DNA from: a virus
Strand: one strand, 5' to 3'
IMG/VR virus record: IMGVR_UViG_3300047160_036265
Length of the DNA: 64,000 nt
The position numbers and the translations under genes are program-made. Under the pieces are notes generated by a model. It saw only the letters and a list, made by a program, of their open reading frames with translations, searched no databases and was not told the DNA's origin. The first letter of the stretch is position 1, and each line of letters starts with the position of its first letter. Below, one piece after another: positions 3,887 through 53,593 of this stretch.

Positions 3887-3919
3887 GAAGTAACCCTCAT
3901 CTGCACCATCCTGCTTTAG
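3887..3919. repeat. tRNA-associated repeat family A copy (GAAGTAACCC-N4-CTGCACCATCC)
   Basis: Motif lies immediately 3' of tRNA-Gln on the gene strand. A matching GGAGAAAT...GGGGTTTC half sits about 100 nt away at 3787-3815. Confidence 0.6.
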
Positions 3920-3989
3920 CTGCCCGGCAAGGAGTCGAACCTCGATCTTCACGTTCAAAGCGTGACATCCTACCTTTAGACGACCGGGC
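3920..3989 (-). tRNA. tRNA-Gln(UUG)
   Basis: Acceptor GCCCGGU/GCCGGGC, anticodon arm UCACG-CUUUGAA-CGUGA, T-loop GGUUCGACUCC. Confidence 0.7.
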
Positions 3990-4030
3990 AACATTTTTCC
4001 ATCCTACCAACAAAGACACCAGTTGTAAAG

Positions 4031-4101
4031 CTGACCCGCCTGGATTCGCACCAGGACTAGGTGATCCAAAGTCACCTGTGCTACTGTTACACCACGGGTC
4101 A
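4031..4101 (-). tRNA. tRNA-Gln(UUG), G55-type T-loop
   Basis: Acceptor UGACCCG/CGGGUCA, anticodon loop CUUUGGA, T-arm CCUGG-UGCGAAU-CCAGG. Confidence 0.65.
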
Positions 4102-4470
4102 TCACCAGACCGGCACCCCCTCCTGGTCCAGATTTAAGAACTCGTGGGGGTCAACCGGCTCAACCCCGCCCAGGATGCCAGAGGAATACAGTACCTCACC
4201 CCGCTCCTGGTGACTGCTTTCAAACCACCAACCGTCCTCGTCTTCATAGACCTTTGTTACCAGAACAATCTGGCCCAGGCTGCGGGGGTGACACGCTCCC
4301 ACCAGGCGAACGTACTCCCTTGGCCTCGGAATGTAGCCGTTCTGTGGGTTCCAGGTGCTATAGTGCCGCATGAATGACCCGACAGTTGAAGCGTAGCTGA
4401 GGCACTTTCTTGCGGTGAATGGCCTCGGCAATGTCATTACGCATTCTACCGTAAGCCCGCTCCAACGCAA
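4102..4470 (-). CDS. hypothetical protein
   Basis: 122-aa ORF on the gene strand. Confidence 0.4.
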   Translation of the reverse strand: MRWSGLTVECVMTLPRPFTARKCLSYASTVGSFMRHYSTWNPQNGYIPRPREYVRLVGACHPRSLGQIVLVTKVYEDEDGWWFESSHQERGEVLYSSGILGGVEPVDPHEFLNLDQEGVPVW

Positions 4471-4744
4471 GGGTAGTCGCCAACTGGTCGGTTGTAACCA
4501 CCGTCACCAGCATGTGTTGTGAATCAGGGGCCGGGACAACGGATTCAACGTAAGCATCCCGCAGGCAATCGTCTGCGCAGCCGGGCAGCATCAGATTGAG
4601 GGTGTCCGCCACCTGGGCGCACAGTTGCAGGGCCTTTCGGTTTATGACCTGCTTGCGACCCGCTCCGTCCCAGCGGGGGTCTTGACCGTCACCCGGCCCC
4701 CACTGCTCGCACAACGCCTCTTTTGGCGACTTGTGGAATTTCAC
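4358..4744 (-). CDS. hypothetical protein
   Basis: 128-aa ORF; overlaps the downstream ORF in another frame, so the start is uncertain. Confidence 0.35.
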   Translation of the reverse strand: MKFHKSPKEALCEQWGPGDGQDPRWDGAGRKQVINRKALQLCAQVADTLNLMLPGCADDCLRDAYVESVVPAPDSQHMLVTVVTTDQLATTLALERAYGRMRNDIAEAIHRKKVPQLRFNCRVIHAAL

Positions 4745-5277
4745 TTTTTCCTCTTCTTCTTGGGAACCGGGAGGGGCTTGGTAGCGCTCGGCGGACCAAC
4801 TATTTCATTGGGCAGCACAACATATACCAGCCCGTTCCACTGTTCTCGAAACTTCTCCTTCGACCACTTCCTTACCTTGAGGGCGTGCGTGCCGGTGTTG
4901 TCGATCACTTTGACAAAATCGCCCTCATAATGGACCAGCACCAGCACATGCCCTGGAACGCCAATGGCACAGCCGTAACCATTCTTGCAGGCCCAGCGTA
5001 TCAGGTGTGTATTATATGTTTTCTTGGGCTGAAAATAAAAGGGAATCTTCTTCGCCATCATGGCCTGGACTGCCCGATCCGGGCCAGCGCCGTGCTTATA
5101 GGCAGGATAGAGTTTGTACCCATTCGGCACCTTATTGTGCAGGCACAGCGTCGTCAGGCTGCACCACACACAACTACCATCCTTGTTCCGAATCCTATGT
5201 TCTTGTTTTACATTTACTTGTGTATCTCCTGGGGTGGCGGCAATTGTTACCGCCAGCAGCATCGCCCACATAACCAA
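4741..5277 (-). CDS. secreted protein, possible cysteine peptidase
   Basis: N-terminal signal-like hydrophobic stretch MVMWAMLLAVTIAA; CVWCSL and GYGCAIGVPGHVLVLVHYEG suggest a Cys/His peptidase; lysine-rich tail. Confidence 0.4.
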   Translation of the reverse strand: MVMWAMLLAVTIAATPGDTQVNVKQEHRIRNKDGSCVWCSLTTLCLHNKVPNGYKLYPAYKHGAGPDRAVQAMMAKKIPFYFQPKKTYNTHLIRWACKNGYGCAIGVPGHVLVLVHYEGDFVKVIDNTGTHALKVRKWSKEKFREQWNGLVYVVLPNEIVGPPSATKPLPVPKKKRKK

Positions 5278-5315
5278 GCGATCCTTTCAAATAGAGCCTT
5301 TCTATTATAAGAGGA

Positions 5316-5501
5316 TCAATCCTGCCGTTTCCGGGTGCAGTAAAAGAAAAATCCCAGGGCGACCACCAGATAGAGAATCATGAGGAGGGCGGTGACGTAC
5401 CAAGGAGCCTGAAAGATTTGGTTGCCCGTGAAGTGTGCTGCCTTGAGGCTGACAAACGCCAGCACCGAAACTGCCACGGCCTGAAACAACCGTTGTTTCA
5501 T
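5316..5501 (-). CDS. small membrane protein
   Basis: Start moved to the internal Met (MKQRLF...) so the ORF does not overlap tRNA-Cys; two predicted TM helices. Confidence 0.35.
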   Translation of the reverse strand: MKQRLFQAVAVSVLAFVSLKAAHFTGNQIFQAPWYVTALLMILYLVVALGFFFYCTRKRQD

Positions 5502-5514
5502 CACGACCCCCAAG

Positions 5515-5583
5515 AGTCTCCGGTAGGAATCGAACCTACAAAGAACGAGTTTGCAGCCCGTCCCGCCGCCTTGACACGGAGAC
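5515..5583 (-). tRNA. tRNA-Cys(GCA)
   Basis: Acceptor GUCUCCG/CGGAGAC, anticodon loop CUGCAAA, T-arm GUAGG-UUCGAUU-CCUAC. Confidence 0.6.
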
Positions 5584-5887
5584 ATTACCGTTGACCGCCA
5601 CCCCTGATCCTTTTATATGTGTCCCAGACAAGAAACAGTGTCCAGATCACGGTCCAAAGGGCGACAGCCAACAGGTATATTACAGCATCTTCGGCCTTCT
5701 CACGCCAATGATTCCAATTCATCCTCGCCAAGCATTTGCCAAAACGGGTTTTCCCCACGCATCTGCCAGAACACTCGATATTGCCAGGTCCACCCGTTCT
5801 CAGCCCACTGCCTCTCCAATATGGTCATTTCCTTGCCGCCCCTGCGGCGCAGTGCCCGCTCGCCAATCTCAAACCTCGGCTGCGGGA

Positions 5888-6166
5888 TTATCCTCCTTGT
5901 TCTAGTTTGACAGCTTTCTGTTTCCATTGCTCTTGTTCCCACTCCTTTATGTTGGAGGTTGTGACATAGTAGCGTTGGCCACAACCTAGACACCAACATT
6001 TTTCGGGGTGGAGAGCGCCGTTTTCAAGACTCCGATACATTTTTACAATACCGGGTCCAATTTGCGGGTCATAACAGTAACGGCACTGACCCTCGTGGGC
6101 GTGAAATTCGATCTCCTCCGGGGCAGCTTTATGCCGCAACAGGGTGCCGATCTTTCGCCGCTTCAT
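5888..6166 (-). CDS. hypothetical Cys-rich protein
   Basis: Start moved to the internal Met (MKRRKIG...) to avoid the tRNA-like element; CRYCYD..CWCLGCG cysteine clusters. Confidence 0.4.
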   Translation of the reverse strand: MKRRKIGTLLRHKAAPEEIEFHAHEGQCRYCYDPQIGPGIVKMYRSLENGALHPEKCWCLGCGQRYYVTTSNIKEWEQEQWKQKAVKLEQGG

Positions 6167-6184
6167 GACATTCTCCAAGTGCGA

Positions 6185-6262
6185 CCGCCGGGACTCGAAC
6201 CCAGACTTCAGCTTCCGGTAGCGCAAAGTGCATAGCTGCGTGCTGCCTACTAGGGGTTCACG
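6185..6262 (-). tRNA. tRNA-like element (acceptor pairing unresolved)
   Basis: T-loop signature GGGUUCGAGUCCC and a D-arm-like segment; a canonical acceptor stem could not be built by eye. Confidence 0.3.
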
Positions 6263-6448
6263 GGTTGGGTACTCAACAGCCTATTTCGGACGCCTACTGA
6301 CTCCTTGCTCCCATCGGCCTGTCGGCCCTTTCAGCCGCTCACGGTTTTTAAGGTTGCCCTTTGCGCTGTTACCGATGATCCTGGGGAGGGTTCGGACGGC
6401 CCTTTACTGCTGCCTTTCGACAAACCGCTACTACCTTCGCTATTCACA

Positions 6449-7102
6449 CTACGGTCGCAACAGTTTCAATCGTCTCTTTAAGGAGGAGACGCCTCCTATG
6501 TGTTCCATCAACAACTCGCTGGGGAAATACACCGGGATACGCTCGTTGGCGATAAACAAACCCACAGCCAGGTCGTATGGAAGCGAATGTTTCTCTTGGA
6601 TCAACTTCGTCAGATCATCCACCGAAACATTCTTGCCGTACACCGCTCCATTCGTACAACACCAAACGTGATGCCCCCTTTCGTCCATGTGGTCCCCGAC
6701 AAACTTATTGTACCCCTGTCCTGCCGGGTCTGAGGCCATTCCATTCTTATTGCACAAATCCAAGACCCAAGGCGTGTCCGGCAAATCCAGGTTCAGCAAC
6801 TTATCCCACCAACCTGGCGCGAAAACCACATCGTTTTCCATCACCAGGGCGCAGGTGGCTTTGGCCTGTTGCAGACAGCGGCAGTAATTGAACGCCGCTC
6901 GCTCCCAGCCCGGACGACCCTTTGGCCTGTGGAAGTGGAACTCCACAAAGCCACGATAGCGGTCAAAGTAACTGCACTTCAGTCCGTCCATCATTATATG
7001 GATTGGACAACGTACACCGCCCAGGGCCATAGTCGCCAGGGTTTCGTGTATATATTCGGGGTTCCTCTCATATCCAGAGATTATTACTTGGTCGAGTCGC
7101 AC
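6449..7102 (-). CDS. hypothetical protein
   Basis: 217-aa ORF on the gene strand with ordinary amino-acid composition. Confidence 0.5.
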   Translation of the reverse strand: MRLDQVIISGYERNPEYIHETLATMALGGVRCPIHIMMDGLKCSYFDRYRGFVEFHFHRPKGRPGWERAAFNYCRCLQQAKATCALVMENDVVFAPGWWDKLLNLDLPDTPWVLDLCNKNGMASDPAGQGYNKFVGDHMDERGHHVWCCTNGAVYGKNVSVDDLTKLIQEKHSLPYDLAVGLFIANERIPVYFPSELLMEHIGGVSSLKRRLKLLRP

Positions 7103-7262
7103 GTTTTAACAGAGTTACCGCCGGTCGTCTTCCTCGTAAGGAAGGTAGTCGTGAGCGTCCCGGTAACGCCGGCTGGCACTCTGCTGCAAACTGGCGATGG
7201 TGTCCCTGGCGGCTTTCAACTGCCTACGCAGAGAGGCAACCAGAGCCTCCAGTTCAGCGATC

Positions 7263-7682
7263 CTAGCCTCCTTGTCGCCATTCGTCTCCATCTAAATCCT
7301 TTGTGTACATGCCATAATCACACCCAGCCGTTTCCCCGGTGTAATTGATGAAGTCCACGATGATCGCCCGGTCTACCTCGTCCAGTGCCTCCTGCAAGGC
7401 TACGACCTTGGCCACAAAAGCCATTTTACCCAGGATCGTACCTGTGTGGAAATCCCCTTCCCAAAATCCCGGACTCTCCTCGCACTTCTCGACGTACTTT
7501 TCCAGGGTGTCCCTGATGCGGCTGTCGGATGGTTGCACCCCGCCACACTCGTTCATGTGCTGGTTCCTGGCAACACCGTCGTCCCGCTGGTCGAGGTAGA
7601 CGGTTATGCGTCGTTCCAGGGCAGCAATGAGGGAAGCAAAATCATGAACCTTGTCTCTCCCTGGGGGATCAAACGGATTCAT
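7263..7682 (-). CDS. hypothetical protein
   Basis: 139-aa ORF immediately downstream of the sigma factor gene. Confidence 0.45.
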   Translation of the reverse strand: MNPFDPPGRDKVHDFASLIAALERRITVYLDQRDDGVARNQHMNECGGVQPSDSRIRDTLEKYVEKCEESPGFWEGDFHTGTILGKMAFVAKVVALQEALDEVDRAIIVDFINYTGETAGCDYGMYTKDLDGDEWRQGG

Positions 7683-8362
7683 GCCACACCCATCAGCTTG
7701 CGTAAAGTCTCCAGTGCGGAGCGGTGGGCCAACTGCGCTGCCTGGCGAGTGACCTTGCGCTTGGGCCAGCGTTCCCCGATCTGCTCAAAGGTCAGCGGCT
7801 CATTGTCCTCCAAACCATAGTGCAACCGCAATACCATTTGCTCCTTGGGCGGCAGGTGCTTCATGCCTTCGTTCAGGGCCTCAATGTCAATCCAGGTGGT
7901 ATCCAGACCCACGCTCGCCACCGCCAGGGCATCGTCCACCGCCCCCTGGACCATCTTCCTGGCCCGCTGGGCAGCTTTGGCGGTCTTCACCGTATGGGCC
8001 TTCCCGTAGGGCAAGGCTTTGCCCTGCTCCAGAAAGTTGACCAGCCGGTGGGCACAGCCGGGAATGTGAATCAGGTGACGGCCCTGGGTGATGGCACGCT
8101 CCATCCCATGACGGATGGCCTTGCCGGCGTAGGCACCGTACTTGCCCAGCGACTCATCATAGAGTTCTCGGCAGGAGCGGAGCGCCACATACCCAATCTG
8201 GATGAGATCATCGAACTCCAGACCGGGGAGGCGTCCACCCCAGACCCGCCAGTACATACGGGCCAGGGTGAACACCAGGCCCATGTCCTTACATTCGGGG
8301 TGCTTTTCCAAGTCGATCTGCCCAATATCGAGCTTGTAACCCCCAGGCTTCCGTGTTGCCAT
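7679..8362 (-). CDS. sigma-70 family (ECF-like) sigma factor
   Basis: Region 2-like DDLIQIGYVALRSCRELYDESLGKYGAYAGKAIRHGMERAI and region 4 HTH LPPKEQMVLRLHYGL..LTFEQIGERW. Confidence 0.65.
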   Translation of the reverse strand: MATRKPGGYKLDIGQIDLEKHPECKDMGLVFTLARMYWRVWGGRLPGLEFDDLIQIGYVALRSCRELYDESLGKYGAYAGKAIRHGMERAITQGRHLIHIPGCAHRLVNFLEQGKALPYGKAHTVKTAKAAQRARKMVQGAVDDALAVASVGLDTTWIDIEALNEGMKHLPPKEQMVLRLHYGLEDNEPLTFEQIGERWPKRKVTRQAAQLAHRSALETLRKLMGVA

Positions 8363-8374
8363 TTTGTCGGTCCC

Positions 8375-9151
8375 TCAGTCCGAAAGTAACTCCATTTCTT
8401 CGGGCAGAAGGCCGCAGGTGGAATACCACCATTCGGGCGACTTATCCTTGTGGCGCTTCCACATGCGCTTGGCCCGATATAACGTAACTCGCCGCTTCTC
8501 CTCTTGCTCTTTGAGCCAGTCATCAAACACGAACCGCTCCGTACCGTCGAGGTATTTCAACATGCGCCGGAGCAACCGCTGGCAAATATATTCCCTGCCC
8601 TTGCAGCCCGGTTTGATGCCGTTGCGGTACATCATTTCAAGAGTGCGTACATGATCGGCAACCACAGGATGGTGGCGGATGAAAAGAGAAGTATCGTGTA
8701 TATTTTGCTTCTGCTCCACAAGAAGATGAAGGCGTTCCCAACCAAACCCCACGTCAGTAGAATGACCAAGAGGGTTGACGAGATTGCCAATTTCCAGCCC
8801 CCGACTGAAGACTTCACAGCAATGCCCGCCGATATTCCCATCAGACCACACACAATCAGGGTCATCAACAACGGGATAACCTCGTTTAACCCAAAGCTGT
8901 TTGTGGTCGGGCCGGTCGGGGTGGACATGAATGCAGTCAACTTTAATGGCGAGGTCCGTCAGCAGGCAGTGCCAAAGCTCGACGCTGATTTCGTAGTCGT
9001 TGCCGCCAAACGAAAAATTACCAAGCATCTCGAAGTAAGTGAGATGCTGGCCGTCGCCCACAAGTTCTAAATCGTTCGTGCGGACACAGGATTGCAGGGA
9101 GCCGTGCTTGCTCCCGTCTGGATTTAAGAATCTGTTCTTGACCCTCTGCAT
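8375..9151 (-). CDS. alanyl-tRNA synthetase catalytic-core-like fragment protein
   Basis: SCVRTNDLELVGDGQHLTYFEMLGNFSFGG matches AlaRS QRCVRAGGKHNDLENVG..HHTFFEMLGNFSFGDYFK; GGHCCEVF..LEIGNLV matches GPCGPCSEI..IEIWNLVF. Lacks the FTNAGM N-terminus and all C-terminal domains. Confidence 0.55.
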   Translation of the reverse strand: MQRVKNRFLNPDGSKHGSLQSCVRTNDLELVGDGQHLTYFEMLGNFSFGGNDYEISVELWHCLLTDLAIKVDCIHVHPDRPDHKQLWVKRGYPVVDDPDCVWSDGNIGGHCCEVFSRGLEIGNLVNPLGHSTDVGFGWERLHLLVEQKQNIHDTSLFIRHHPVVADHVRTLEMMYRNGIKPGCKGREYICQRLLRRMLKYLDGTERFVFDDWLKEQEEKRRVTLYRAKRMWKRHKDKSPEWWYSTCGLLPEEMELLSD

Positions 9152-9496
9152 ACCAGAGCAAATGAAGAGGGTGGAGGGATCATCGGGAATGATATTCGAG
9201 TCGATGGTGAGGGGAAACCCGAACTGCCCGAAGCGGTCCAGAACTAATTCGTAGCAAGGCGGCGCATATCTATCCTCCAGGTTAGGGTGTTATAGCACAA
9301 AAATAGTCCGGTTCAAGTCCAATAGTCCGGCACCGAAAGCCATAGTCACTGGATTAGGCTCTCTGTCATCCTTTGTGGGACTTCCCTACTCCTGTCATTC
9401 ACCCTTGCGGGATACGGTTATTCCTGACAGTTTCAAGCCAGTGAAACCAGTCCTGTACCACCCGACCAGCGGGCGGTGCCGAACGTAGGCCCTGGT

Positions 9497-9585
9497 CGGT
9501 AGGCCAGTGGGCGGTGAGGGAGTCGAACCCTCACTGAGCCGGCAGTTTTGAACCCTGCGCTCGATCTCAGCAGGCGCAATTGGTC
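9497..9585 (-). tRNA. tRNA-like element (uncertain)
   Basis: T-arm GUGAGGGUUCGACUCCCUCAC present; acceptor and anticodon arms are not canonical. Confidence 0.3.
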
Positions 9586-9622
9586 TATGACGGTCTTGCC
9601 GGTTATCAGGCTCCTGCCCGCC

Positions 9623-9979
9623 CTATTGCACCAACTTGATGAACTGGCGCTGGAGCTTGGGTATCGGACATCCCGGAAAAGACGCCCGAACTTCATCGCT
9701 GATTTCCTGCACGGGGCCGACGCCGAAGAAGGCCCACAGCCACTCCTGCCACTCCTCCTCCGTCAAGTCACGTTTGGGCGTCACCGACAAATGCCACGCT
9801 GCCTTGGTTATTGTAGGCGTGACTCGGCAGATGTCGAAGGAGAAGACAGTCTCAACGATTTGGTCGCCGTAGGCGATATTACGGGCACAGCACTCCGGGA
9901 CAATGAAATGCTTCTCCTGGTCATGGGGGTTCTGCTGGGCGACCAAGGCCATGTCGTTGGCGATTGTGCGCAAGTCCAT
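9623..9979 (-). CDS. hypothetical protein
   Basis: 118-aa ORF on the gene strand. Confidence 0.4.
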   Translation of the reverse strand: MDLRTIANDMALVAQQNPHDQEKHFIVPECCARNIAYGDQIVETVFSFDICRVTPTITKAAWHLSVTPKRDLTEEEWQEWLWAFFGVGPVQEISDEVRASFPGCPIPKLQRQFIKLVQ

Positions 9980-9982
9980 CGC

Positions 9983-10399
9983 TCACTCCTCGTGAATCTC
10001 CATGTCTTCGGAAAGGGCGATCTCCTGTTTGGTGGGGCAGTCGGCACCAAACTCGACGTAGTAGGTGCCGCCGATGATGCTGGTGTCCAGAACGCCTTTA
10101 GCGTGCTGGACCAGAGCGCCATCCTCGTCGCTGAGGTAAATGTCGGTGGCCTTGTTCTTGGCAGTCACCTTCAGCTTCTTATATTGAACGGCGTGCCAGG
10201 CTTCCTTGATGATGTCGTAGTCCCGCTCGCCGGGATTACAGGCGGTCCCACTGCTGCCGTTGAGATACCAGTGGGTCCGCCGCCCCTCCCCCTCCTCGAA
10301 ATCAACCTGGAACGAGACATCCTGTTCCAGAAGGAGACGGATAAACTCGAACAACTGGTACTTGTTGTCGCCTTCATATGCGATGCGTGCCAAGGTCAT
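9983..10399 (-). CDS. hypothetical protein
   Basis: Start set at MTLARIAYEGD, which is preceded by a GGGAGGG Shine-Dalgarno; sits downstream of the L7/L12 gene. Confidence 0.45.
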   Translation of the reverse strand: MTLARIAYEGDNKYQLFEFIRLLLEQDVSFQVDFEEGEGRRTHWYLNGSSGTACNPGERDYDIIKEAWHAVQYKKLKVTAKNKATDIYLSDEDGALVQHAKGVLDTSIIGGTYYVEFGADCPTKQEIALSEDMEIHEE

Positions 10400-10430
10400 T
10401 TCCCTCCCAACGAATTGCAGGCAGATGAGA

Positions 10431-10898: not shown

Positions 10899-11128
10899 TC
10901 TTCCTCCCAGCTACAGTAGTGTTTGACGGCGACGGTGAACTTCACCAAGTCGGTGTCGGAAAATAAAACCTCGTTGCCCTCAAGCAACGTGTACTTGAAG
11001 GTTTCCGAGTCGGCTTCAATCAGAATTTTGTGGCTGCCGGCAACGAGCGGGGGCTTGTTGCACTTCTTGAGGTAGTGCAGCAAGGTGGGCCACATCTCGC
11101 CAAATTTGGGGTGTTCCAGTGGGTCCAT
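10895..11128 (-). CDS. hypothetical protein
   Basis: ORF trimmed to the internal Met (MDPLEHPKF...). Confidence 0.35.
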
Positions 11129-11133
11129 CACCG

Positions 11134-11735: not shown

Positions 11736-11742
11736 CTTGCCC

Positions 11743-12138: not shown

Positions 12139-12144
12139 AGCAAC

Positions 12145-12375: not shown

Positions 12376-12384
12376 CCTTATATA

Positions 12385-12742: not shown

Positions 12743-12835
12743 CTCGTCAGGCAGGACTCGAACCTGCAACCTGGCGGTTAAGTTAAGGTCTGTCAGGACC
12801 AACAGCCGCCTGCTCTACCATTGAGCTACTGACGA
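12743..12835 (-). tRNA. tRNA-Asn(GUU)-like with about 21-nt insertion in the anticodon arm
   Basis: Acceptor UCGUCAG/CUGACGA, D-arm GCUC-AAUGGUA-GAGC, T-arm GCAGG-UUCGAGU-CCUGC; anticodon stem GGCGG/CCGCC encloses 28 nt (CUGUUGG plus a GGUC-CUGACA-GACC hairpin). Confidence 0.5.
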
Positions 12836-21297: not shown

Positions 21298-21996
21298 TCA
21301 TTTTAGCCTTTCGACCAGGGCTTCGGCCAGCCTGTCTTTCAGTTCTTTGTTCTGTTGCGGCAGCGGCCCGCCGACGAAATGGGCGTAGAGGAAGTGCAGG
21401 TTCTCCAGGCCCGCCTCGGTTGCCGTGGCCTTGCGGAGCTTCAAGCGAACGTCGTCCGGGCTGTCATCCAGAAATACGCAGCCGGGGGGCGAAGATTTCG
21501 ACATCTTCTTGTCGGGTTCCCGCAAATCCTTGACCCGACCACCCATGAGATTTGCAACGGGGATCGGATAGGTCGTCTGGAACCGGCGGTTGCAGCGATG
21601 CAGAAGCTTTCGTGCATACTGCAAGTGCTGATGCTGGTCCTCCCCGACCATGACTTCATTATACCCGGCCACATCATGAGCCATCAACACCGGGTACGTC
21701 AAAAGGTGAGCGGTGCGGCGGTCGTCGGCGCAGGATTTGAATTGCGTCATGCGCCCCAGATCGCCCATCTTGGCCAGGACGAGGAGCCGAAAATATAACT
21801 CGGCGTCAAAAACATCCTTTTGCAACCGGATGTTCTGGACGCCGAACCTCCGCAGAGTGGCCACCGACTGACTTGTGTTTTGTTCTTCGGGTGCGTGGTA
21901 ATTTGCAACCAGCACATCCGCACCCTGTTGCCCCGGCAGAATTACCGAGAAGTAATGACCCAGGTGCAGCCGCCCCGTGGGCCTAAAGCCGCACAA
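21298..21996 (-). CDS. trpS: tryptophanyl-tRNA synthetase-like, minimal (232 aa)
   Basis: HIGH-region RLHLGHY, GDLGRMTQFKSC (E. coli GELSRMTQFKDK), YPVLMAHDV, VMVGEDQHQHLQYARKLLHRCN and KMSKS all match TrpRS; about 100 aa shorter than bacterial TrpRS, mostly in the anticodon-binding domain. Confidence 0.65.
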   Translation of the reverse strand: MCGFRPTGRLHLGHYFSVILPGQQGADVLVANYHAPEEQNTSQSVATLRRFGVQNIRLQKDVFDAELYFRLLVLAKMGDLGRMTQFKSCADDRRTAHLLTYPVLMAHDVAGYNEVMVGEDQHQHLQYARKLLHRCNRRFQTTYPIPVANLMGGRVKDLREPDKKMSKSSPPGCVFLDDSPDDVRLKLRKATATEAGLENLHFLYAHFVGGPLPQQNKELKDRLAEALVERLK

Positions 21997-22904: not shown

Positions 22905-22908
22905 CAAG

Positions 22909-22991
22909 CAGAGCCGTGAGGAATCGAACCCCATAGGCGTCGAAGGCCGGTGGATTTGGAGTCCACCTGATGTCCCAGCATCACCGGCTCT
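22909..22991 (-). tRNA. tRNA-Trp(CCA)-like with extra variable-arm hairpin (83 nt)
   Basis: Acceptor AGAGCCG/CGGCUCU, anticodon arm GUGGA-CUCCAAA-UCCAC, extra hairpin GGC-CUUCGAC-GCC before the T-arm. Confidence 0.5.
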
Positions 22992-26870: not shown

Positions 26871-27166
26871 GACTTCAAACGGAACCCCAACATGGCGAAT
26901 GCCTCGCGCTGGCTCTTGGCCTCGCCCTGGGTGGAGGGCGACTTGATGCGGTCGGCCAGGCTGTTACGCCAGGCAAACCCGTGCGCCGTCTTGGTGACTT
27001 CTCCGTAATAGGTGCCGTCCTTGAAAATCTTCTGCGTCTTGCCTTCCTCCCGGACTTCGATGGACATGGAAACCTCGTTACTGGTCATCAATGCTGCGAT
27101 ACCCTGGGCATCGCCAGCCGTGGAAACACTCAAGCAGCAAGCCAGGCCGCAGACGCAAATTTCCAA
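26867..27166 (-). CDS. hypothetical protein
   Basis: 99-aa ORF with a hydrophobic N-terminus. Confidence 0.4.
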   Translation of the reverse strand: MEICVCGLACCLSVSTAGDAQGIAALMTSNEVSMSIEVREEGKTQKIFKDGTYYGEVTKTAHGFAWRNSLADRIKSPSTQGEAKSQREAFAMLGFRLKS

Positions 27167-27291
27167 ACTCGCGTCGGGGGATTTTCATGAGGTATTGGTC
27201 CGGTTCGCCGGTTTGCGGGCTTACCCAGGCCACATAGACAAATTTTGGCCCGATCTTCATGACTTGGTGCATTTGTCTGCCCCTCAATCAG

Positions 27292-27364
27292 TGCGGCATA
27301 CGGGAATTGAACCCGTCCCCTCACGTTGGCAACGTGATATACTCAGCCAATATACGAATGCCGC
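27292..27364 (-). tRNA. tRNA-Gly(GCC)
   Basis: Acceptor GCGGCAU/AUGCCGC, anticodon loop UUGCCAA, T-arm GACGGGUUCAAUUCCCGUA; a near-identical copy lies at 31540-31612. Confidence 0.7.
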
Positions 27365-27420
27365 AGTTCGGCAGGAGAAAAAATCGCTTAGAGTTGGCTT
27401 TAGCATTTGTGATCGGCTTG

Positions 27421-33812: not shown

Positions 33813-34396
33813 ACACGAGTCTCACTCTCGTTCACCGGCCCAGGTTCTTTCGCCACCTGAGCCGGGTCGTGCTTCGACCGATTACGGCTCAGGGCTTGCG
33901 GGGGTATTATCCCCACAACGACGTTCGGCGGCGGGCTTGCTACCCGTCGCGCACGTCGGGCGCTGTGGCTGATGCCACTGCGCCTGTTTGCCGGTAATCT
34001 GCACGAAGTACGACACGTTCATTGTCTCCTTTACCGGCGTGACCCCTTTGGTCACTACCGGCTGGAGCCGAGTTGCCTCGGCCTTGCAAGTCTCGCTGCG
34101 GGAACCACTCCCGCTATGTACTAGATACCTGAGCCGCCAAAACGGTCAGGATTTTTTCGGAAAAAACAGGTGAGGCCCTTTCGCGCCGCCCACTCTTTCG
34201 AGTTGCCCTAGCTCCTTTCGGAGACGGGGCCTTTCGCCTACGTCGCCCCGTTTTGAGCGGGTTCGACTTCGGCGTGGTGTCGGCTTGCGATTAGCGGGCC
34301 TCACCTGTTTCTACGGCATCGGTTTGTTTTTTTCCTGAGCCTCGGTCTATCGTTTCCATAGCCTTGGCCGACAGGTTTTACCTCTGCCGCAGAAGT
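33813..34396 (-). ncRNA. large structured noncoding region, candidate ncRNA (identity unknown)
   Basis: About 585 nt with no ORF over 60 aa, many UUCG/GNRA-type hairpins (cctttcgg, ctcctttcggag, gacttcggcg), and a long-range pair aaaacaggtgaggccc (about 34160) with gggcctcacctgtt (about 34297). Confidence 0.3.
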
Positions 34397-34559: not shown

Positions 34560-36383
34560 TCAGGCCCGCCAGCCCTCAATCTTCGTGACGGTGAAGGACT
34601 CGCCCTGGCGGTGGCCTTCTCCTTCCACCCCGTCCCAAGCATCATACGCCAGCAGCCCCCGGCACGTCAAGTCCAAATAATGGCCGGTCTTGAACCCGAT
34701 GGTCAAAAAGGTGATCTCCCGCCCGCCAACCGTGTGGTGCCGCCCCGTGGCAATCAACCCCCGGAATCGTCTCCCGTCGAAGTAGCAATTTGGCATAAAC
34801 CTATTACTGATCCAGTAGTTGCGCTTACGGTACTGATGCCAGCCGTCGCCCTGGGTCTTGTCCGGCTTGCTGTTGGTGAGACGGTCGCCCTCCAGGTGCC
34901 AGAATCCGCCCTGGCCGAAGTTTTCCAGCTTCAGGCCCTCGTACTTGGCCTCCTGAACGTGGACCCAGGGCCGGTACATGCTGGCGGCGTGGTTGAGGGC
35001 GGCGAGCCAGAACTTCTGCCGCTGGCGGGTCTTTTCGTAGGCCAACGCCCAGACCAGATAGCCGTAGGCGGTCGCGTGGGCCTTGCAAAAGCTGTAGAGG
35101 GCGTAGTAGGACAACTCCTTGACGATCTTGGGCCAGTCCGGGAGATACTGGATGCGGACGGCGAAATCCTTGATGGTGTTCTCGTCCTCCTTGGCGAAAC
35201 CCCGGCGGTAAACCTCGGCCTCACTCTCGGAGCAGATCAGCAACTCCCGAATTAGGTTGATCCCGTCCTCATCAAAGACGAGATGCCCCTTGGTGGAGCG
35301 GGTTTGCCGCCAGGTTTCCAGGGCATCGAGCTTTCTGCCGTCAGCAGATGGCACGGGCCGAATCAGGGCCAGGGCGGTAATGATGTCGGAGCGGCAGCGG
35401 ACGCTCAGTGCCCCGCACAGCTTTCGCTGGGCCGGGGATTCGGCAAAGGTCACGCCCCAGGTGTCGCCCTCATTAAAGAGGCGCACCGTGTCGTCGTCCT
35501 CTTCCGGGTAGTCGAGCAAGGGGCGGGTAGCCAATGCGGTCCACTGCGCCAGGCCCCGGTTGCAGAGCAGGTCGATCTTGTGGAGGCCGGCGGCTTCTAC
35601 CTCGTCCTTGTCCAGATGGATATGGTCGTCTTTTATTTTCAGATCGGGAGGCACATGGTCATCGAATATTACGATGCCGCCGCAGTGCTGGGCATTGAGG
35701 CGAACTGTTCCTTCCAGTTCTCCGGCACGCCGCAAGATGGCTTCGGCCTTGTCGCCAGCAATCTTCTCCAGGTCGAAGCCACGGGGCAGGAAGTGATGAA
35801 AGCCAGCTTCACGGAGAGCCTGGCGGATGGCGGAATCCCGGCGGTAGCGAATCTTGGTGGAGATGCGGGCGACACGCCCAGGGTACTTTTCCTTGACCCG
35901 CTCGATCACTTCATCCCGGCGGTTATAAGGGAAGTCGATGTCGATGTCGGGCAAATCCTGGCGGCGCTCGTGCATGAAGCGGGCGAGGCAGAAACCGTGC
36001 TGGATGGGGTCGAAATCGGTGATACCCATGAGGTAGCAGACCAAGCTGCTGCCCGCCGACCCACGGGTGATATGCGGGATGTCATCGGCCAGGTCGAGTA
36101 TTTCCCGGACCTGGGAGAAGACATTTGCAAAACCGAATCGCTGGATCAACTCCAGTTCATGCTTTAGCCGACTTTCGTATTCAGGACCGGGCGGGAGTCG
36201 GCGGCGGAACGGCAACATGAGCCGGACTCCATTTTCACTGGCTGTTCTTCCAGAACTTCCGGGCGTGATGGACCTTTGCCAGCGCCTTGCCCACGTCCGC
36301 AAGGGCCTTGGCCTCATCGGGCTTGGCCCAGGCGAACGGCTTCTTATTCGGGGTTTCCTCGTACTCCCTTTGCAGGTACTCAT
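34560..36383 (-). CDS. dnaE: DNA polymerase III alpha (DnaE)-like catalytic fragment lacking the PHP domain
   Basis: GSAGSSLVCYLMGITDFDP, LPDIDIDFPYNRRDEVIERVKEKYG, HCGGIVIF match DnaE palm/fingers; the N-terminal 80 aa are Ser/Arg/Pro-rich instead of a PHP domain, and the C-terminus stops after the fingers. Confidence 0.65.
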   Translation of the reverse strand: MSTCKGSTRKPRIRSRSPGPSPMRPRPLRTWARRWQRSITPGSSGRTASENGVRLMLPFRRRLPPGPEYESRLKHELELIQRFGFANVFSQVREILDLADDIPHITRGSAGSSLVCYLMGITDFDPIQHGFCLARFMHERRQDLPDIDIDFPYNRRDEVIERVKEKYPGRVARISTKIRYRRDSAIRQALREAGFHHFLPRGFDLEKIAGDKAEAILRRAGELEGTVRLNAQHCGGIVIFDDHVPPDLKIKDDHIHLDKDEVEAAGLHKIDLLCNRGLAQWTALATRPLLDYPEEDDDTVRLFNEGDTWGVTFAESPAQRKLCGALSVRCRSDIITALALIRPVPSADGRKLDALETWRQTRSTKGHLVFDEDGINLIRELLICSESEAEVYRRGFAKEDENTIKDFAVRIQYLPDWPKIVKELSYYALYSFCKAHATAYGYLVWALAYEKTRQRQKFWLAALNHAASMYRPWVHVQEAKYEGLKLENFGQGGFWHLEGDRLTNSKPDKTQGDGWHQYRKRNYWISNRFMPNCYFDGRRFRGLIATGRHHTVGGREITFLTIGFKTGHYLDLTCRGLLAYDAWDGVEGEGHRQGESFTVTKIEGWRA

Positions 36384-40858: not shown

Positions 40859-40952
40859 TACGGAGGGATGGAGTTGAACCACCGACCCTTAGTGCGCTGA
40901 CAAGGTTGCCCTCGCCCCGCTTTCCAATGCTCTGCCGTTGAGCTACCTCCGC
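40859..40952 (-). tRNA. tRNA with about 22-nt extra sequence between D- and T-arms; anticodon unresolved
   Basis: Acceptor GCGGAGG/CCUCCGU, D-arm GCUC-AACGGCA-GAGC, T-arm GGUGG-UUCAACU-CCAUC. Confidence 0.4.
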
Positions 40953-41200: not shown

Positions 41201-41480
41201 GTCTTTCACAAGCAGAATCAAACTTCTCATTCCCACAGGCAGCGGGGTTACTTACGAAGTGTCCCAATACATGGCTTGCGCCTACCTCCTGGGTTAAATC
41301 GGTGAAGTAGCCCCACGCCTGCACCGCCCAGCCCGAAGGCCGGGGAAATTAGCGGCTGGAGTTGCGGGTGGATTACCACCATGTTAGAAGGAGGGGTGGG
41401 GGCGGTCGATGGTTCGGCCTTACTGTGAAGCTCGGCTCGGTTCTCTACTGGCCCCCACACCCACGCGCCTGCGATATTAT

Positions 41481-41534
41481 GGCGTGAGAAGTGTGTCGCC
41501 TGCGATTGCTCGCAAGAACGCCTTTGCTCACGCC
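41481..41534. repeat. repeat family C copy
   Basis: ggcgtgagaagtgtgtcgcctgcgattgctcgcaagaacgcctttgctcacgcc, an imperfect palindrome GGCGTGAG...CTCACGCC with an inner GCGA-UUGC-UCGC hairpin; directly 3' of the 279-aa ORF. Confidence 0.55.
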
Positions 41535-41540
41535 ATTTTC

Positions 41541-50989: not shown

Positions 50990-51440
50990 ATATTCGGGCA
51001 GGGGTCTTTCTTTTGCGTTTGAAGTAACCCTGGCCTGCACCTACCCCCATTATGTATTGAAACCGGAGAAATATTCGGGCAGGGGCTTTCGTTGTGATTG
51101 AAGTAACCCTGACCTGCACCTTCCGGTTATGTTCTCGAATACGAGGGCGGGAGAAATAGTCGCTGCGAGTGTTTTTCAAAACCATTTTCTGAAGTAACCC
51201 GCAACTGCACCGTCCCGCCAAGTACCCCCGCCAGGAATTGAACCCGGCCTTCAACGTCCGAAGCGTTGCGTGCGATGCCGACACACTCCGGGGGCAAGAA
51301 TCTCTGGAGATATAGACGACCAGGGGCTTTTCGACATTAGTGGTGTTGAAGTAACCCTAGCCTGCACCTTCCAGAGAGTATTGGGGCGTGAGAAGTAGCT
51401 CGCCTACGATTTCTCGCAAGAACCCTCTCGCTCACGCCGA
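50990..51440. repeat. tandem array of four repeat-family-A units (about 85 bp each) with two embedded tRNAs and one repeat-C copy; candidate Y-RNA-like or tRNA-derived small RNA array next to rsr
   Basis: GAAGTAACCC-N4-CTGCACC at 51021, 51100, 51191 and 51348, each preceded by the GG(A/C)GAAATA(T/G)TCG..GGG..TTTC half; sits directly downstream (on the gene strand) of the Ro60-like gene. Confidence 0.55.
51223..51295 (-). tRNA. tRNA-Arg(UCG)
   Basis: Acceptor GCCCCCG/CGGGGGU, D-arm GUGUGUCGGCAUCGCAC, anticodon arm CAACG-CUUCGGA-CGUUG, T-arm GCCGGGUUCAAUUCCUGGC. Confidence 0.6.
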
Positions 51441-51441
51441 G

Positions 51442-51513
51442 TACCCCGTGCGGGAATTGAACCTGCTCTTTTACCTTCGGAGGGTAACGTGCTGTCCGGC
51501 ACACTCACGGGGT
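51442..51513 (-). tRNA. tRNA-Arg(CCG)
   Basis: Acceptor ACCCCGU/ACGGGGU, D-arm GUGUGCCGGACAGCAC, anticodon arm UUACC-CUCCGAA-GGUAA, T-arm GCAGG-UUCAAUU-CCCGC. Confidence 0.6.
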
Positions 51514-51569
51514 ATTGTTGCCCGACCCCCACAGTATATAGCAGGGATCGGGCAGTTGTCAAGGGTTGT

Positions 51570-53483
51570 TTAGGCGATCTTGTACTTCGCCCGCAGGACT
51601 TCCAGCGGCGGCACTTCCTTGGCCTCGCCCTGCTCCTGCTCGCCCAGGCCCTCGCAGTCAGCGATGATGTTGACCAGCTTCTCCGACCAGCCGGACAGCA
51701 GGTGGGTCTGCTTGTCGGTCGGCTTCACCTGAGCCTGGCCGTGGCCGTTCAGGTTGATGCTGTACACCTTGCACTGCGCGTTGACCTTCTGGCGGTAGTC
51801 GGCGCACATCGACTGCACGCTCATCCCCTTGAAGTGGTCCTTGCCGCCGTGGCACAGGTTGGCGTTCCCCTGCGTGTAGCAGCAGAAGTCACTCATGATG
51901 ATGATGCGGTCAACGTGGAGCTTCTTGTCCGTGATGTCCTTGAGGCCCCACCACAGACCCGTCTCCGTGCCGCCGCCCACACCACCGCCGTAGCGGTTGC
52001 TGCCCAGGCCACCGTGGGTCTTCGGGTCGTCGCTCTGGGCGCACTTCTTCACCTGCTCGTGGATCGCCAGGCAGGTGTCAGCCTGGCTGAACGGCACCCA
52101 CACCAGCATGTCACCGAACACGCCGATCTTCACGCGACGGCCCAGCTTCTTCGCCAGGACGGCCATCAGCATGTTGCCGGCGTCGGCAACCACCAGCCGG
52201 GACTTGGCGCTCGTGGCGCAGCCCGTGGCCGAACCGGAGTTGTCCGTCAGGACCACCGTGATGCCCGGCAAGTCGGCAATGTTGTTGCACGCCTGGTCCA
52301 GCTTCAGGTCGATCACCGTCTTGGCTTCCGTCGTGGAAACCTCGTTCTTGGCGGTGAACCACCGGAACGGAAGCTGCACAGAGTCTTCCTTGCCCTGAAG
52401 CTTCTCGTAGACCTTGCTCCACAGAGCATCGCTGATCTTGGCCTGCTCGAAGTTGCGCAGGTTGCGGGTAAGGGCCATCTCGCCCATCATCGGGATGCAC
52501 AGTTCCCAGACTTCCTTGCTGGAACCCAGGTGCGACAGCACGTTCTCCCAGGTCAGACCGGCCAGGCGCAGGAAGTCCGGGGTCACGCCCAAGGCCGGGA
52601 GGCCCTGCGCAGCCACGTCCTTCTTGTCGAGGCCGAAGAACTTCTTCCGGGCCTGGAGCAGCGGCGACGAGTTACCGTCCACCACGCCGTTCACCAGGAA
52701 GTCGAACAGGCTCTTGGACACGGGCCAGCCCACGTCCTTGTTCTGCTCGTGTTCGCCCTGCTCGTCCTGCACCTTCACAGTGACGGTGCTGATGCTGCCG
52801 GCCTTGGCCAGCTTCTTGTGCTTGGAGCCACGGAGCATCTTCAGCAGGTCGGCGTAGTTCGGGCGCTCCGTGGTGTCGTACTTCAGGATTTCGTATTCCG
52901 AGAACCGGGCGATGGCGGCGCACAGCGCCTTGCGCAGCGCGTGCGGCAGCGCACCCTTGTGGCGTGGCTTCGAGCGCTGGTACAGGTGGCGGAAGGCCGC
53001 AAACACCTGGAGCGGTTCATCGGCACGGTCCATGATCCGTGGGCCGTACTTGGCCAGGAACGGACGGGTCTTCTCGTTCGCCGCAGCGACCACCAGCATC
53101 ATCTGCGGGGTGGTGCGCAGGCGCAGGCCCTCCGTCTTGTCGCGTGCCCAGGACGCGATAATGAACAAGTCTTCCGGGTGATCGCCCTTGGCGACCGCCT
53201 GAGCCGTCTCGATGACTTCCTGGGCCTGCTCGGTCAAGCCGACCTCGTTGACGATCTTGGACTCGATGCGCCCGACCGTGGTAAGCTCCGTGATGAAAGC
53301 TTCATAGTCACGGTTGGAGTCGTAATACTTCGGCTCGTTGAAGAACCCGCCGCCGATGGTGTGCATCAGCTTCACGGCAGGGTCGTTGATCTCGTAGGCA
53401 ACGCCTGGAACATGCTTGTGGGCCACCTGCTCCTCAGCAGCAGCCTTGTGGACATCCTTCTTCTCGAAAGCGAACTTGGACAT
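51570..53483 (-). CDS. rsr: Ro60/Rsr-like protein (TROVE + vWA domains)
   Basis: Start at MSKFAFEK, preceded by GGAGAGGAGAG. IGGGFFNEPKYY resembles the Ro60 GSEGGTYY segment; helical-repeat N-terminal region; C-terminal vWA with MIDAS ITVVLTDNSGSATG; about 640 aa. Confidence 0.5.
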   Translation of the reverse strand: MSKFAFEKKDVHKAAAEEQVAHKHVPGVAYEINDPAVKLMHTIGGGFFNEPKYYDSNRDYEAFITELTTVGRIESKIVNEVGLTEQAQEVIETAQAVAKGDHPEDLFIIASWARDKTEGLRLRTTPQMMLVVAAANEKTRPFLAKYGPRIMDRADEPLQVFAAFRHLYQRSKPRHKGALPHALRKALCAAIARFSEYEILKYDTTERPNYADLLKMLRGSKHKKLAKAGSISTVTVKVQDEQGEHEQNKDVGWPVSKSLFDFLVNGVVDGNSSPLLQARKKFFGLDKKDVAAQGLPALGVTPDFLRLAGLTWENVLSHLGSSKEVWELCIPMMGEMALTRNLRNFEQAKISDALWSKVYEKLQGKEDSVQLPFRWFTAKNEVSTTEAKTVIDLKLDQACNNIADLPGITVVLTDNSGSATGCATSAKSRLVVADAGNMLMAVLAKKLGRRVKIGVFGDMLVWVPFSQADTCLAIHEQVKKCAQSDDPKTHGGLGSNRYGGGVGGGTETGLWWGLKDITDKKLHVDRIIIMSDFCCYTQGNANLCHGGKDHFKGMSVQSMCADYRQKVNAQCKVYSINLNGHGQAQVKPTDKQTHLLSGWSEKLVNIIADCEGLGEQEQGEAKEVPPLEVLRAKYKIA

Positions 53484-53568
53484 GATGACTCTCCTCTCCA
53501 ACTCAGCAGGGACCAGAGATAATATCGGCAGGAGTCCCGGCCCATAACAATAGGGCCGGTAAAACGGT

Positions 53569-53593
53569 GAAGTAACCCCCACCTGCACCTTCC
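53569..53593. repeat. repeat family A copy upstream of rsr
   Basis: gaagtaacccccacctgcaccttcc. Confidence 0.55.

Follow-up and report, generated by a model that had tools for sequence, protein, structure and literature searches.

Introduction

Ro60 (Rsr), a ring-shaped protein of RNA quality control, and its Y RNA partners are conserved from bacteria to humans, in whom Ro60 is an autoantigen in lupus and Sjogren's syndrome. Y RNAs are small non-coding RNAs defined by their binding to Ro60, and in bacteria and phages they are typically encoded beside the Ro60 gene (rsr) and on the same strand; to our knowledge, the roles of Ro60 and Y RNAs in bacteria and viruses are poorly understood. Here we describe a family of ten dispersed elements in a 64,000-nucleotide stretch of viral DNA (IMG/VR record IMGVR_UViG_3300047160_036265; the whole stretch is called the window below). 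The elements are very probably Y RNA genes on the minus strand that share their transcription with the neighbouring tRNA genes and a Ro60 gene; the genome they belong to is probably that of a ~670-kb phage.

The closest described RNA, YrlA, combines a Ro60-binding stem that carries the motif GNCGAAN0-1G, a conserved YUAY and a tRNA-like module of T-arm, acceptor and D-arm (PMC4201824; bioRxiv 10.1101/312249). Phage Ro60 with Y-like RNAs has been documented in 22 phages (PMC4201824), TROVE genes have been noted in jumbo phages (PMC7824862), and the Ro60 protein of Thermus phage phiLo binds two RNAs, Yrl1 and Yrl2, as well as the host polynucleotide phosphorylase (PNPase) (PMC12135203). RNAs of this kind are already known, phages included, and some members of the present family may already be catalogued in the supplementary lists of Chen et al. 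(2014). New here are a widespread sequence variant missed by the curated Rfam model, minimal forms that do without the tRNA-like module, ten conserved paralogues in a single window, and their physical integration into the tRNA operons of huge phages.

Results

Ten copies of one element lie on the strand of the tRNA genes

Scanning the window for GAAGTAACCC-N4-CTGCACCRTCC with up to three mismatches returned ten matches, all on the plus strand, with core positions 3887, 27478, 28917, 32210, 32680, 51021, 51100, 51191, 51348 and 53569; none of 100 dinucleotide-preserving shuffles matched, so that none is expected by chance. These are the ten copies of a preliminary description of the window, whose coordinates are confirmed apart from one that was off by a single nucleotide (27477, now 27478). 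A second conserved half, which had been reported as usual, is in fact present in every copy, 25–115 nt from the core; it reads GGAGAAATA..CG..GGG on the plus strand and CCC..CG..UAUUUCUCC on the minus strand. All tRNA genes of the window are on the minus strand, and the repeat is therefore to be read as its reverse complement. Read in this way, the copies are RNAs of 68–161 nt encoded on the same strand as the tRNA genes.

We built two covariance models of the family. The first, R1, was derived from a MAFFT alignment of the seven short window copies and scored at every position of the window, where it found the ten copies (30–82 bits), one weak candidate at 41241–41333, and nothing else. The second, R2, was trained on 107 copies from outside the window only, and in its scan of every window position it regained all ten copies at 55–68 bits and otherwise only the same weak candidate. 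The copies, each named after its core position and each a putative Y RNA gene, are as follows:

53511 to 53597, minus strand: copy c53569, 87 nt, short; R1 61.4 bits, R2 54.7 bits
51301 to 51377, minus strand: copy c51348, short, with its 3' end 5–6 nt before tRNA-Arg(tcg); R1 72.8 bits, R2 59.1 bits
51146 to 51219, minus strand: copy c51191, 74 nt, short, starting 2 nt after tRNA-Arg(tcg); R1 82.4 bits, R2 68.2 bits
51061 to 51128, minus strand: copy c51100, 68 nt, short, in tandem; R1 76.4 bits, R2 65.2 bits
50976 to 51053, minus strand: copy c51021, short, last of the tandem; R1 76.0 bits, R2 58.8 bits
32635 to 32708, minus strand: copy c32680, 74 nt, short; R1 82.0 bits, R2 65.4 bits
32169 to 32238, minus strand: copy c32210, 70 nt, short; R1 74.8 bits, R2 64.0 bits
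28787 to 28947, minus strand: copy c28917, 161 nt, long, YrlA-type, following tRNA-Ile(gat); R2 61.1 bits
27368 to 27508, minus strand: copy c27478, 141 nt, long; R1 59.6 bits under default filters, 43.2 bits unfiltered, R2 62.6 bits
3774 to 3916, minus strand: copy c3887, 143 nt, long; R2 60.6 bits

Database searches returned little for these elements. Rfam at the gathering score recognized only tRNAs in the window, and Rfam scans by E-value gave nothing for the short copies and a sub-threshold match to YrlA (RF02553) for a single long copy, c28917 (28807–28927; 28.2 bits, E 0.0017, against a gathering score of 69). The only match to positions 27000–34000 in a megablast search of INPHARED phages was a 73-nt stretch of tRNA, and the window therefore has no close cultured relative in that collection.

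The copies fold into a common, covarying architecture

The same order of parts recurs on the minus strand in all ten copies: a closing stem of 6–9 bp (P1), one variable nucleotide, GGUG, the 5' strand of a second helix (P2), UUACUUC, a variable insert, an A-rich stretch, the 3' strand of P2, NNUAUUUC, and the 3' strand of P1. P2 is a helix of 9 bp with an invariant bulged A, in which C[A]G + N4 + GGG pairs with CYC + N4' + CG, and the invariant GGUG sits in the internal loop between P1 and P2. The four variable nucleotides of the preliminary description are there, but they are covarying base pairs in the middle of P2; its closing stem is likewise real, but is found in all ten copies and not merely in some. 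P1 covaries among copies as GCAGGA/UCCUGC, GACCGGA/UCCGGUC, GGGGGU/ACCCCC, CUCUGGA/UCCAGAG and GGCGGGA/UCCCGCC.

Whether the family covaries had been left as a question, and both alignment and RNAalifold revealed strong covariation. P1 and P2 together comprise 15 pairs; in the alignment of the seven short copies, 97.1% of their cells hold a pair, compared with 33–51% when the partners are slid by 1–3 columns, and eight of the 15 change on both sides. The corresponding figures for 37 copies from the window and 12 other loci, in an alignment fitted to the model, are 97.3% of pair cells against 36–50% in the slid controls, with changes on both sides in 14 of the 15 pairs. RNAalifold, run on 20 long copies aligned with MAFFT and without model fitting, predicted P1, P2, a T-arm, an acceptor-like stem and a D-arm; 22 of its 32 pairs show compensatory changes, and the acceptor-like stem is among the parts that covary. 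In the same prediction, GGUG is paired through its first two Gs to the (U/C)C just before the 3' strand of P1. We also considered a full pairing of GGUG with the U-rich 3' loop and rejected it: only those two Gs pair consistently (G-C, G-U), and the remainder is unsupported across copies.

G-U accounts for about 10% of the pair cells in the 37 copies; since such pairs would turn into A-C mismatches on the opposite strand, the minus strand is the RNA sense. Of the 37 copies, 36–37 share without change the GGUG, the bulged A, UACUUC and the final C of the 3' loop, and the U-A of YUAY is present in equally many.

Seven of the ten window copies are of a short form (68–87 nt), in which the distal hairpin is short or absent and there is no tRNA-like arm; the other three are long (141–161 nt) and differ in how much of a tRNA-like module of T-arm, acceptor and D-arm they carry. 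The module is full in c28917, whose minimum free energy (MFE) fold comprises V hairpin, T-arm (GGGUUCGAUUCC), closed acceptor-like stem and D-arm (UAGCUCAGUGGUAGAGC), with a GCAA hairpin in addition. It is divergent in c3887, with a deviant T-arm, a UUCG-capped acceptor-like stem and a D-like arm, and it is reduced to the T-arm in c27478, which has two GCAA hairpins and no D-arm (fold z −3.6). Among 34 distinct long relatives, the T-loop motif occurs in 29 and the D-arm motif in 24. The preliminary description had proposed tRNA-derived pseudo-tRNAs, which suits two or three copies (28917, 3887 and in part 27478), where a tRNA-like module is present as in YrlA, and does not suit the seven without tRNA-like sequence.

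Individual copies repeat this picture. The fold of c51191 (MFE −30.6 kcal/mol, z −3.9) reproduces both P1 and P2. In c53569, P1 is GACCGGA/UCUGGUC and P2 is GGUGGGGG/CUCCUGCC. The only G-to-U change in GCAG, in c32210, is compensated by C-to-A in the partner strand, giving a U-A pair. Orthologous copies in related loci vary in the same manner: the P1 of c51348 changes from CUCUGGA/UCCAGAG to CGCUGGA/UCCAGCG in the sibling phages L044 and L129, and the acceptor-like stem of c3887 has compensatory changes in its orthologue in L081. Orthologues of c27478 are found in L080 and L095.

The eleventh candidate, at 41241–41333 on the minus strand, scored 16.6 bits with R1 (E 0.04) and 18.3 bits with R2 (E 0.009), E-values that are rough for covariance models; its fold has z −1.9. 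It reads GGUGCAG-GCGU-GGGGCUACUUC, followed by a GGCGCAAGCC hairpin and CCCCGCUGCC. It is without the 3' CG-NNUAUUUC loop and without a clear P1, and it overlaps an open reading frame (ORF) at 41248–41775 that has no Pfam match. We regard it as a weak candidate for a degenerate eleventh family member, not as an established one.

A Ro60 gene lies beside half of the copies

Five of the ten copies are located within ~600 nt of a 637-aa ORF on the same strand; the other five are inside the tRNA array, 18–50 kb away. The ORF and its nearest neighbours are:

51570 to 53483, minus strand: Ro60/Rsr orthologue by sequence and predicted fold, 637 aa, with TROVE ring and vWA domain and a DxSGS MIDAS motif
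53621 to 53649, minus strand: sigma-70-like promoter match TTTACA-17-TATAGT, 10 of 12 consensus positions, ending ~24 nt upstream of c53569
51533 to 51562, minus strand: sigma-70-like promoter match TTGACA-18-TATACT, 11 of 12 consensus positions, between the Ro60 stop codon and tRNA-Arg(ccg)
51441 to 51513, minus strand: tRNA-Arg(ccg), called by ARAGORN and by Rfam (45.8 bits), first gene of the cluster downstream of Ro60
51222 to 51295, minus strand: tRNA-Arg(tcg), called by ARAGORN and by Rfam (40.0 bits in a regional E-value scan), between two Y RNA copies

Several lines of evidence identify the protein. It matched TROVE in Pfam (E 5.5e-23) and, over residues 106–610, phrog_850, 'RNA-binding protein', in PHROG (E 1.3e-22). 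Its best sequence match in the PDB was the Ro60 of Thermus phage phiLo (9KOP/9L5Y; phmmer E 2.6e-9), with the MIDAS motif aligned. An AlphaFold model of the ORF (predicted template modelling score 0.82) was compared with the PDB by Foldseek, and the top 13 matches were all Ro60 (E 5e-15 to 1.6e-9), among them Xenopus 1YVP/2I91, Deinococcus 2NVO, phiLo 9KOP and human Ro60; the next match had E 0.017. By Pfam, PHROG, phmmer and predicted fold, then, the product of 51570–53483 is a Ro60/Rsr orthologue.

The local order on the minus strand is a promoter-like site, c53569, Ro60, a second promoter-like site, tRNA-Arg(ccg), a 63-nt hairpin, c51348, tRNA-Arg(tcg), c51191, c51100, c51021 and, after a ribosome-binding site, small ORFs. 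The promoter-like sites are matches to the consensus, of which three were found in the region against 1.0 expected.

The 63-nt hairpin RNA (51378–51440, minus strand; GGCGUGAG...GCUACUU-CUCACGCC; MFE −27.6 kcal/mol, z −3.5), which separates tRNA-Arg(ccg) from c51348, has a CUACUUC block like that of the family and is without GGUGCAG. It is kept in the identical assemblies L020 and L021 and is missing at exactly that spot in the sibling L129, and therefore looks like a strain-specific insertion.

A protein identical to the window's Ro60 is listed for a contig of 669,797 bp. No structural genes lie in the window, and it is from this identity that we infer its probable origin in a phage or phage-like element of ~670 kb.

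Copies and tRNA genes are separated by a few nucleotides

ARAGORN called 48 tRNA genes in the window and Rfam 45, all on the minus strand, with a few added by Rfam. The preliminary description held that the element directly follows a tRNA 3' end; this is true of six copies and not of the other four. Five copies start 1–3 nt after an ARAGORN tRNA gene, and the sixth, c32210, ~6 nt after a tRNA called by Rfam only (32245–32306). The four that have no upstream tRNA are preceded by another copy, by the hairpin RNA or by a promoter-like site. On the downstream side, five copies end 3–6 nt before the next tRNA, which in four cases is an ARAGORN gene and in the fifth, after c3887, the Rfam-only tRNA-like gene at 3681–3769. 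Copies may be closely embedded: c32680 has a tRNA-Gln(ctg) gene on each side, 1 and 3 nt away, c27478 is wedged between tRNA-Thr(ggt) and tRNA-Gly(gcc), c32210 between the Rfam-only tRNA and tRNA-Glu(ttc), and c3887 between tRNA-Gln(ttg) and the tRNA-like gene. Over all loci compared, 34 of 144 copies lie within 10 nt of a same-strand tRNA gene, and such tight junctions occur in phage tRNA arrays only. In huge-phage contigs, copies are packed 0–9 nt from tRNA genes, with gaps of 0–4 nt upstream and 2–9 nt downstream.

The copies themselves are a different matter from their neighbours, since no tRNA call, whether among the 48 of ARAGORN or the 45 of Rfam, overlaps with any of the ten. As none is called a tRNA, the copies are not fragments of one duplicated tRNA, an origin that had been considered beforehand; seven of the ten also have no tRNA-like arm.

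Five tRNA-like genes, all on the minus strand, were found by Rfam and missed by ARAGORN (3681–3769, 32245–32306, 29738–29809, 30830–30900 and 40859–40952). The one at 3681–3769 has a 19-nt insert in its anticodon loop that may be an intron. Three ARAGORN tRNAs are unusually long: 12743–12835 (93 nt, 'Gln'), 22908–22991 (84 nt, Trp) and 33655–33739 (85 nt, Cys).

Relatives accompany Ro60 in phages, metagenomes and bacteria

Searching IMG/VR for the Ro60 protein by exact peptide words gave no relatives, and we used a protein database and DNA pattern scans instead. A scan of IMG/VR with a 21-mer from the window yielded six contigs with true copies, in arrays of 2–5; a Ro60 gene follows one of these, an array of five, at a distance of 86 nt, and in a 343-kb contig the copies are fused to tRNA-Phe genes. 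In metagenome contigs the 21-mer occurs in at least 118 stretches. Of 80 metagenome loci that were fetched, 52 had a covariance-model match, and tblastn found a TROVE gene in 17 of these 52 compared with none of the 28 without a match. Four loci scored as lacking TROVE by tblastn have a divergent TROVE+vWA_Ro60 ORF right beside the array. Beside the divergent TROVE of L101 the RNA motif takes variant forms, for example GGUGAAG and UUCCUUC. The TROVE-bearing metagenome loci hold 34 copies, all of them on the strand of the TROVE gene, with a median separation of 217 nt from it; 24 lie upstream.

Genomes in GTDB gave the same association: 29 of 80 loci were true, with TROVE in 19 of the 29 true loci and in none of the 51 false ones. 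The true loci are mostly from Planctomycetota, namely Gemmataceae (including the cultured Zavarzinella formosa DSM 19928), Isosphaeraceae, Thermoguttaceae and Ca. Kuenenia. Some belong to Acidobacteriota, and arrays reach 5–6 copies. The conserved blocks are equally conserved next to rsr in Planctomycetota and Acidobacteriota. Homologues of the window's Ro60 with 50–58% identity are common in metagenome-assembled genomes of Planctomycetota and in contigs of several hundred kb. Copies directly 5' and/or 3' of Ro60 on the same strand are seen in the bacterial loci L016, L018 and L024 and the phage-like L019 and L022; same-strand copies beside Ro60 also occur in L006 and L010, and rsr has copies on its immediate flanks in a second huge-phage contig, of ~669 kb. 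Tight junctions with tRNA genes recur in other phage tRNA arrays (L008, L028, L045, L082, L091). The sibling phages L044 (88% identity) and L129 (83%) keep each paralogue in place, with compensatory substitutions.

At the L016 locus, on a 2.79-Mb Planctomycetota contig (1700–8100), rsr is preceded by a long Y RNA and followed by a short one. This rsr adjoins genes for RtcA (RNA 3'-phosphate cyclase) and RNase II/R, a classical RNA-repair neighbourhood. For L023 (JGI 3300009594), whose Ro60 is 51% identical to that of the window, R1 gave no match at E < 0.001 within 10 kb on either side of Ro60; its Y RNAs have either diverged beyond the model or lie elsewhere.

Matches to the 21-mer GGTGCAGACTTGGGTTACTTC in the IMG/VR loci L002–L004, L007, L009, L011–L013 and L015 and in many genome contigs have neither a model match nor TROVE, and we discarded them as chance or unrelated. 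GGTGCAGACTTGGGTTACTTC lies within a longer conserved stretch of related viral contigs (the IMG/VR set and metagenome L094 and L100), and would mislead a search by pattern only.

The family resembles YrlA and departs from it in its core motif

With YrlA (RF02553) the elements have in common their position beside rsr/Ro60 on the same strand, the pairing of their ends into a stem with an asymmetric internal loop, and the UA of YUAY (as U-U-A-C) after that stem. The long copies also have the V hairpin, T-arm, closed acceptor-like stem and D-arm in the same order as YrlA, which itself occurs in phages. Unlike YrlA, they carry GGUGCAG with a bulged A, an invariant UACUUC and a U-rich 3' loop ending in C; seven of ten are without the tRNA-like module; and ten copies stand in 64 kb, several of which are joined into tRNA arrays and lie tens of kb away from rsr. 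Bacterial relatives score 32–42 bits against RF02553, likewise below threshold.

The system of phage phiLo (PMC12135203; 9KOP, 9L5Y) is similar in that it comprises a phage-encoded Ro60 and Y-like RNAs, which in phiLo lie upstream of Ro60. For phiLo a RYPER-like complex with host PNPase has been demonstrated, a mechanism that we propose for the window's system as well; the window has ten RNAs with a different motif where phiLo has two CGAA-defined Yrls, and the two Ro60 proteins are distantly related. Metazoan Y RNAs and Yrn1 of D. radiodurans share with the family a terminal stem with a conserved bulged helix, the combination of a Ro60-binding stem with a variable effector module, and the presence of several paralogues per genome. 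The metazoan RNAs differ in having no UACUUC and in being independent RNA polymerase III genes. GGUGCAG with its bulged A comes closer in form to the bulged GGUCCGA helix contacted by vertebrate Ro60 (PMC4201824) than to the YrlA motif; the two agree in G, G, U and C, 4 of 7 positions, a resemblance and not an identity.

Other genes of the window

Further genes of the window specify class I and class II aminoacyl-tRNA synthetases (or parts of such enzymes), EF-Tu, sigma factors, an NAD-dependent ligase and a PNKP-like kinase/phosphatase. Three minus-strand ORFs match their profiles only in part: an AlaRS N-terminal piece at 8375–9151 (258 aa), a Trp/TyrRS piece at 21298–21996 (232 aa) and a DNA Pol III alpha piece at 34560–36383 (607 aa). 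These may be split, truncated or intron- or intein-interrupted genes. The NAD-dependent DNA ligase (58206–60281) and the PNKP-like protein (AAA_33 + PNK3P/HAD; 61225–62382), both also on the minus strand, are encoded 5–9 kb upstream of Ro60, and the synteny from ligase to Ro60 recurs in the phage-like contigs L019, L022 and L023. The surroundings of ligase, PNKP-like gene and Ro60 suggest a nucleic-acid repair neighbourhood.

Discussion

The elements are structured, heavily covarying RNAs beside a Ro60 gene, and among the options offered by the preliminary description it is that of small RNA genes which has proved right. Judging by these features, we conclude that they are YrlA-type Y RNAs together with minimal forms, and their identity as Y RNA genes, partners of Ro60/Rsr, is in our view highly probable.

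A number of points weigh against this identification. No YrlA was called at the gathering score in the window or in 18 bacterial loci that hold copies. GNCGAAN0-1G, scanned for as G.CGAA, is found in the 5' part of none of 37 copies, and GGUGCAG occupies its position. Five window copies are 18–50 kb from Ro60, whereas nearly all YrlA candidates of Chen et al. (2014; PMC4201824) are within 4 kb of rsr. Fitting to the model structure, as was done for the alignments A4 and A5 though not for A1 and A7, inflates pair counts, and the relatives were fetched with a 21-mer from the window, which biases the sampled family toward that motif. Binding to Ro60 and processing by RNase P and RNase Z are themselves deduced from sequence.

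Of the other explanations, we give most room to one in which the elements are structured tRNA trailers or spacers, a cis-acting punctuation that would aid RNase P, RNase Z or a phage enzyme and have no function once released. It would account for the six copies that start within ~6 nt of a tRNA 3' end, the five that end 3–6 nt before the next tRNA, and the same tight junctions in other phage tRNA arrays. Yet members of the family flank rsr in the bacterial loci L016, L018 and L024 with no tRNA gene in the locus, most tRNA-tRNA junctions in the window have no element, and tandem copies adjoin with no tRNA between them (51061–51219). A spacer, moreover, needs neither invariant single-stranded nucleotides nor a YrlA-type module. 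We consider this explanation very unlikely. A primary role as processing signals, another of the earlier proposals, is unlikely because the bacterial rsr-flanking copies have no tRNA gene within 6 kb.

Alternatively, c53569 and the equivalent upstream copies of bacteria might act mainly in cis, as an autoregulatory leader bound by Ro60. The 3' end of c53569 is 27 nt before the Ro60 start codon, the copy lies downstream of a promoter-like site with no terminator-like site between it and the gene, and an upstream placement is common (24 of 34 matches in TROVE loci). As the main role this is still less probable than a spacer function, for it explains neither the nine other copies of the window nor those downstream of rsr. 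It is compatible with a Y RNA identity and not an alternative to it, and a cis role of c53569 as an additional function is possible.

Like theta ribozymes, the minimal ribozymes resembling that of hepatitis delta virus (HDV) (PMC10879173), the elements are small structured RNAs directly beside phage tRNA genes, and one might suppose that they free the upstream tRNA 3' end by cutting at their own 5' end. A position directly 3' of phage tRNA genes that have no CCA is indeed the context of theta ribozymes (PMC10879173), and invariant unpaired nucleotides are present. However, the covarying helices are strictly nested, the 5'-most strand pairing with the 3'-most, which is incompatible with the nested double pseudoknot of HDV-like ribozymes; theta ribozymes have such a pseudoknot, a catalytic C in J4/2 and suppressor tRNAs as neighbours, whereas the elements are linked to Ro60 genes. 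No ribozyme family of Rfam matched the short copies at E ≤ 10 in a scan of 50800–53700, and many copies in the window and in bacteria have no preceding tRNA. That the elements are self-cleaving is thus extremely improbable.

Hardly more credible is a miniature mobile element, or a set of decayed tRNA pseudogenes, spread by duplication or transposition. Ten dispersed copies with a terminal inverted repeat (P1), tRNA-like arms in three of them, and the look of a recent tandem duplication in c51100 and c51021 could all be cited for it. Against it stand flanks without target-site duplications or direct repeats in all ten copies, P1 and N4 sequences that vary among copies yet stay complementary, a distal module that varies too, and conserved blocks kept equally well beside rsr in Planctomycetota and Acidobacteriota. 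Sibling phages keep the paralogues at orthologous places with compensatory substitutions, tRNA-like sequence is missing from seven copies, and no copy was called a tRNA. The earlier suggestion of a spreading mobile unit thus finds no support in the flanks, in the distant bacteria or in the siblings. A hammerhead ribozyme was rejected on the same grounds of topology, flanks and distribution as the HDV-like, mobile-element and tRNA-pseudogene explanations.

As Y RNA genes, the elements would be co-transcribed with the tRNAs and rsr. Since the gaps are only 0–4 nt upstream and 2–9 nt downstream, we infer release by the enzymes of tRNA processing: the 5' ends would probably be freed by the tRNA 3'-end endonuclease (RNase Z or E) as it cuts the upstream tRNA, and the 3' ends probably by RNase P cutting at the downstream tRNA. 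The invariant GGUG-C[A]G helix and the UACUUC core may be where the Ro60 encoded in the window docks. The distal modules, which vary between a tRNA-like form and a minimal hairpin, could control access to the Ro60 cavity, link Ro60 to an effector such as host PNPase, or do both, by analogy with RYPER and phiLo. The outcome would be a RYPER-like particle for RNA surveillance or degradation during infection, working alongside the phage's gene set of tRNAs, aminoacyl-tRNA synthetases, EF-Tu and PNKP.

A further proposal, which we put forward as speculative and on balance doubtful, is that the ten paralogues form an adaptor set of the phage, matured within its tRNA operons, in which each RNA loads Ro60 with a different distal module and directs it, with host PNPase or other effectors, to different RNA targets. 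Were this so, the tasks of the set might include surveillance and repair of the phage's 50+ tRNAs, demolition of structured host RNA, and evasion of RNA-targeting defences, and Ro60-Y ribonucleoproteins would be a programmable component of the takeover of translation by huge phages.

The locus marks out a widespread subfamily of Y RNAs whose core consists of GGUG, a bulged A and UACUUC; its members occur in Planctomycetota, Acidobacteriota and huge phages and are missed by the curated Rfam model. The locus also indicates that most paralogues can dispense with the tRNA-like module. In huge phages, Y RNA genes appear to be built into tRNA operons with junctions of a few nucleotides. These observations provide a concrete consensus for annotation and a testable maturation route through RNase P and RNase Z, and Zavarzinella formosa DSM 19928, which carries the family, offers a cultured entry point. 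Together, they point to a candidate RNA-surveillance module within the translation-related gene set of very large phages.

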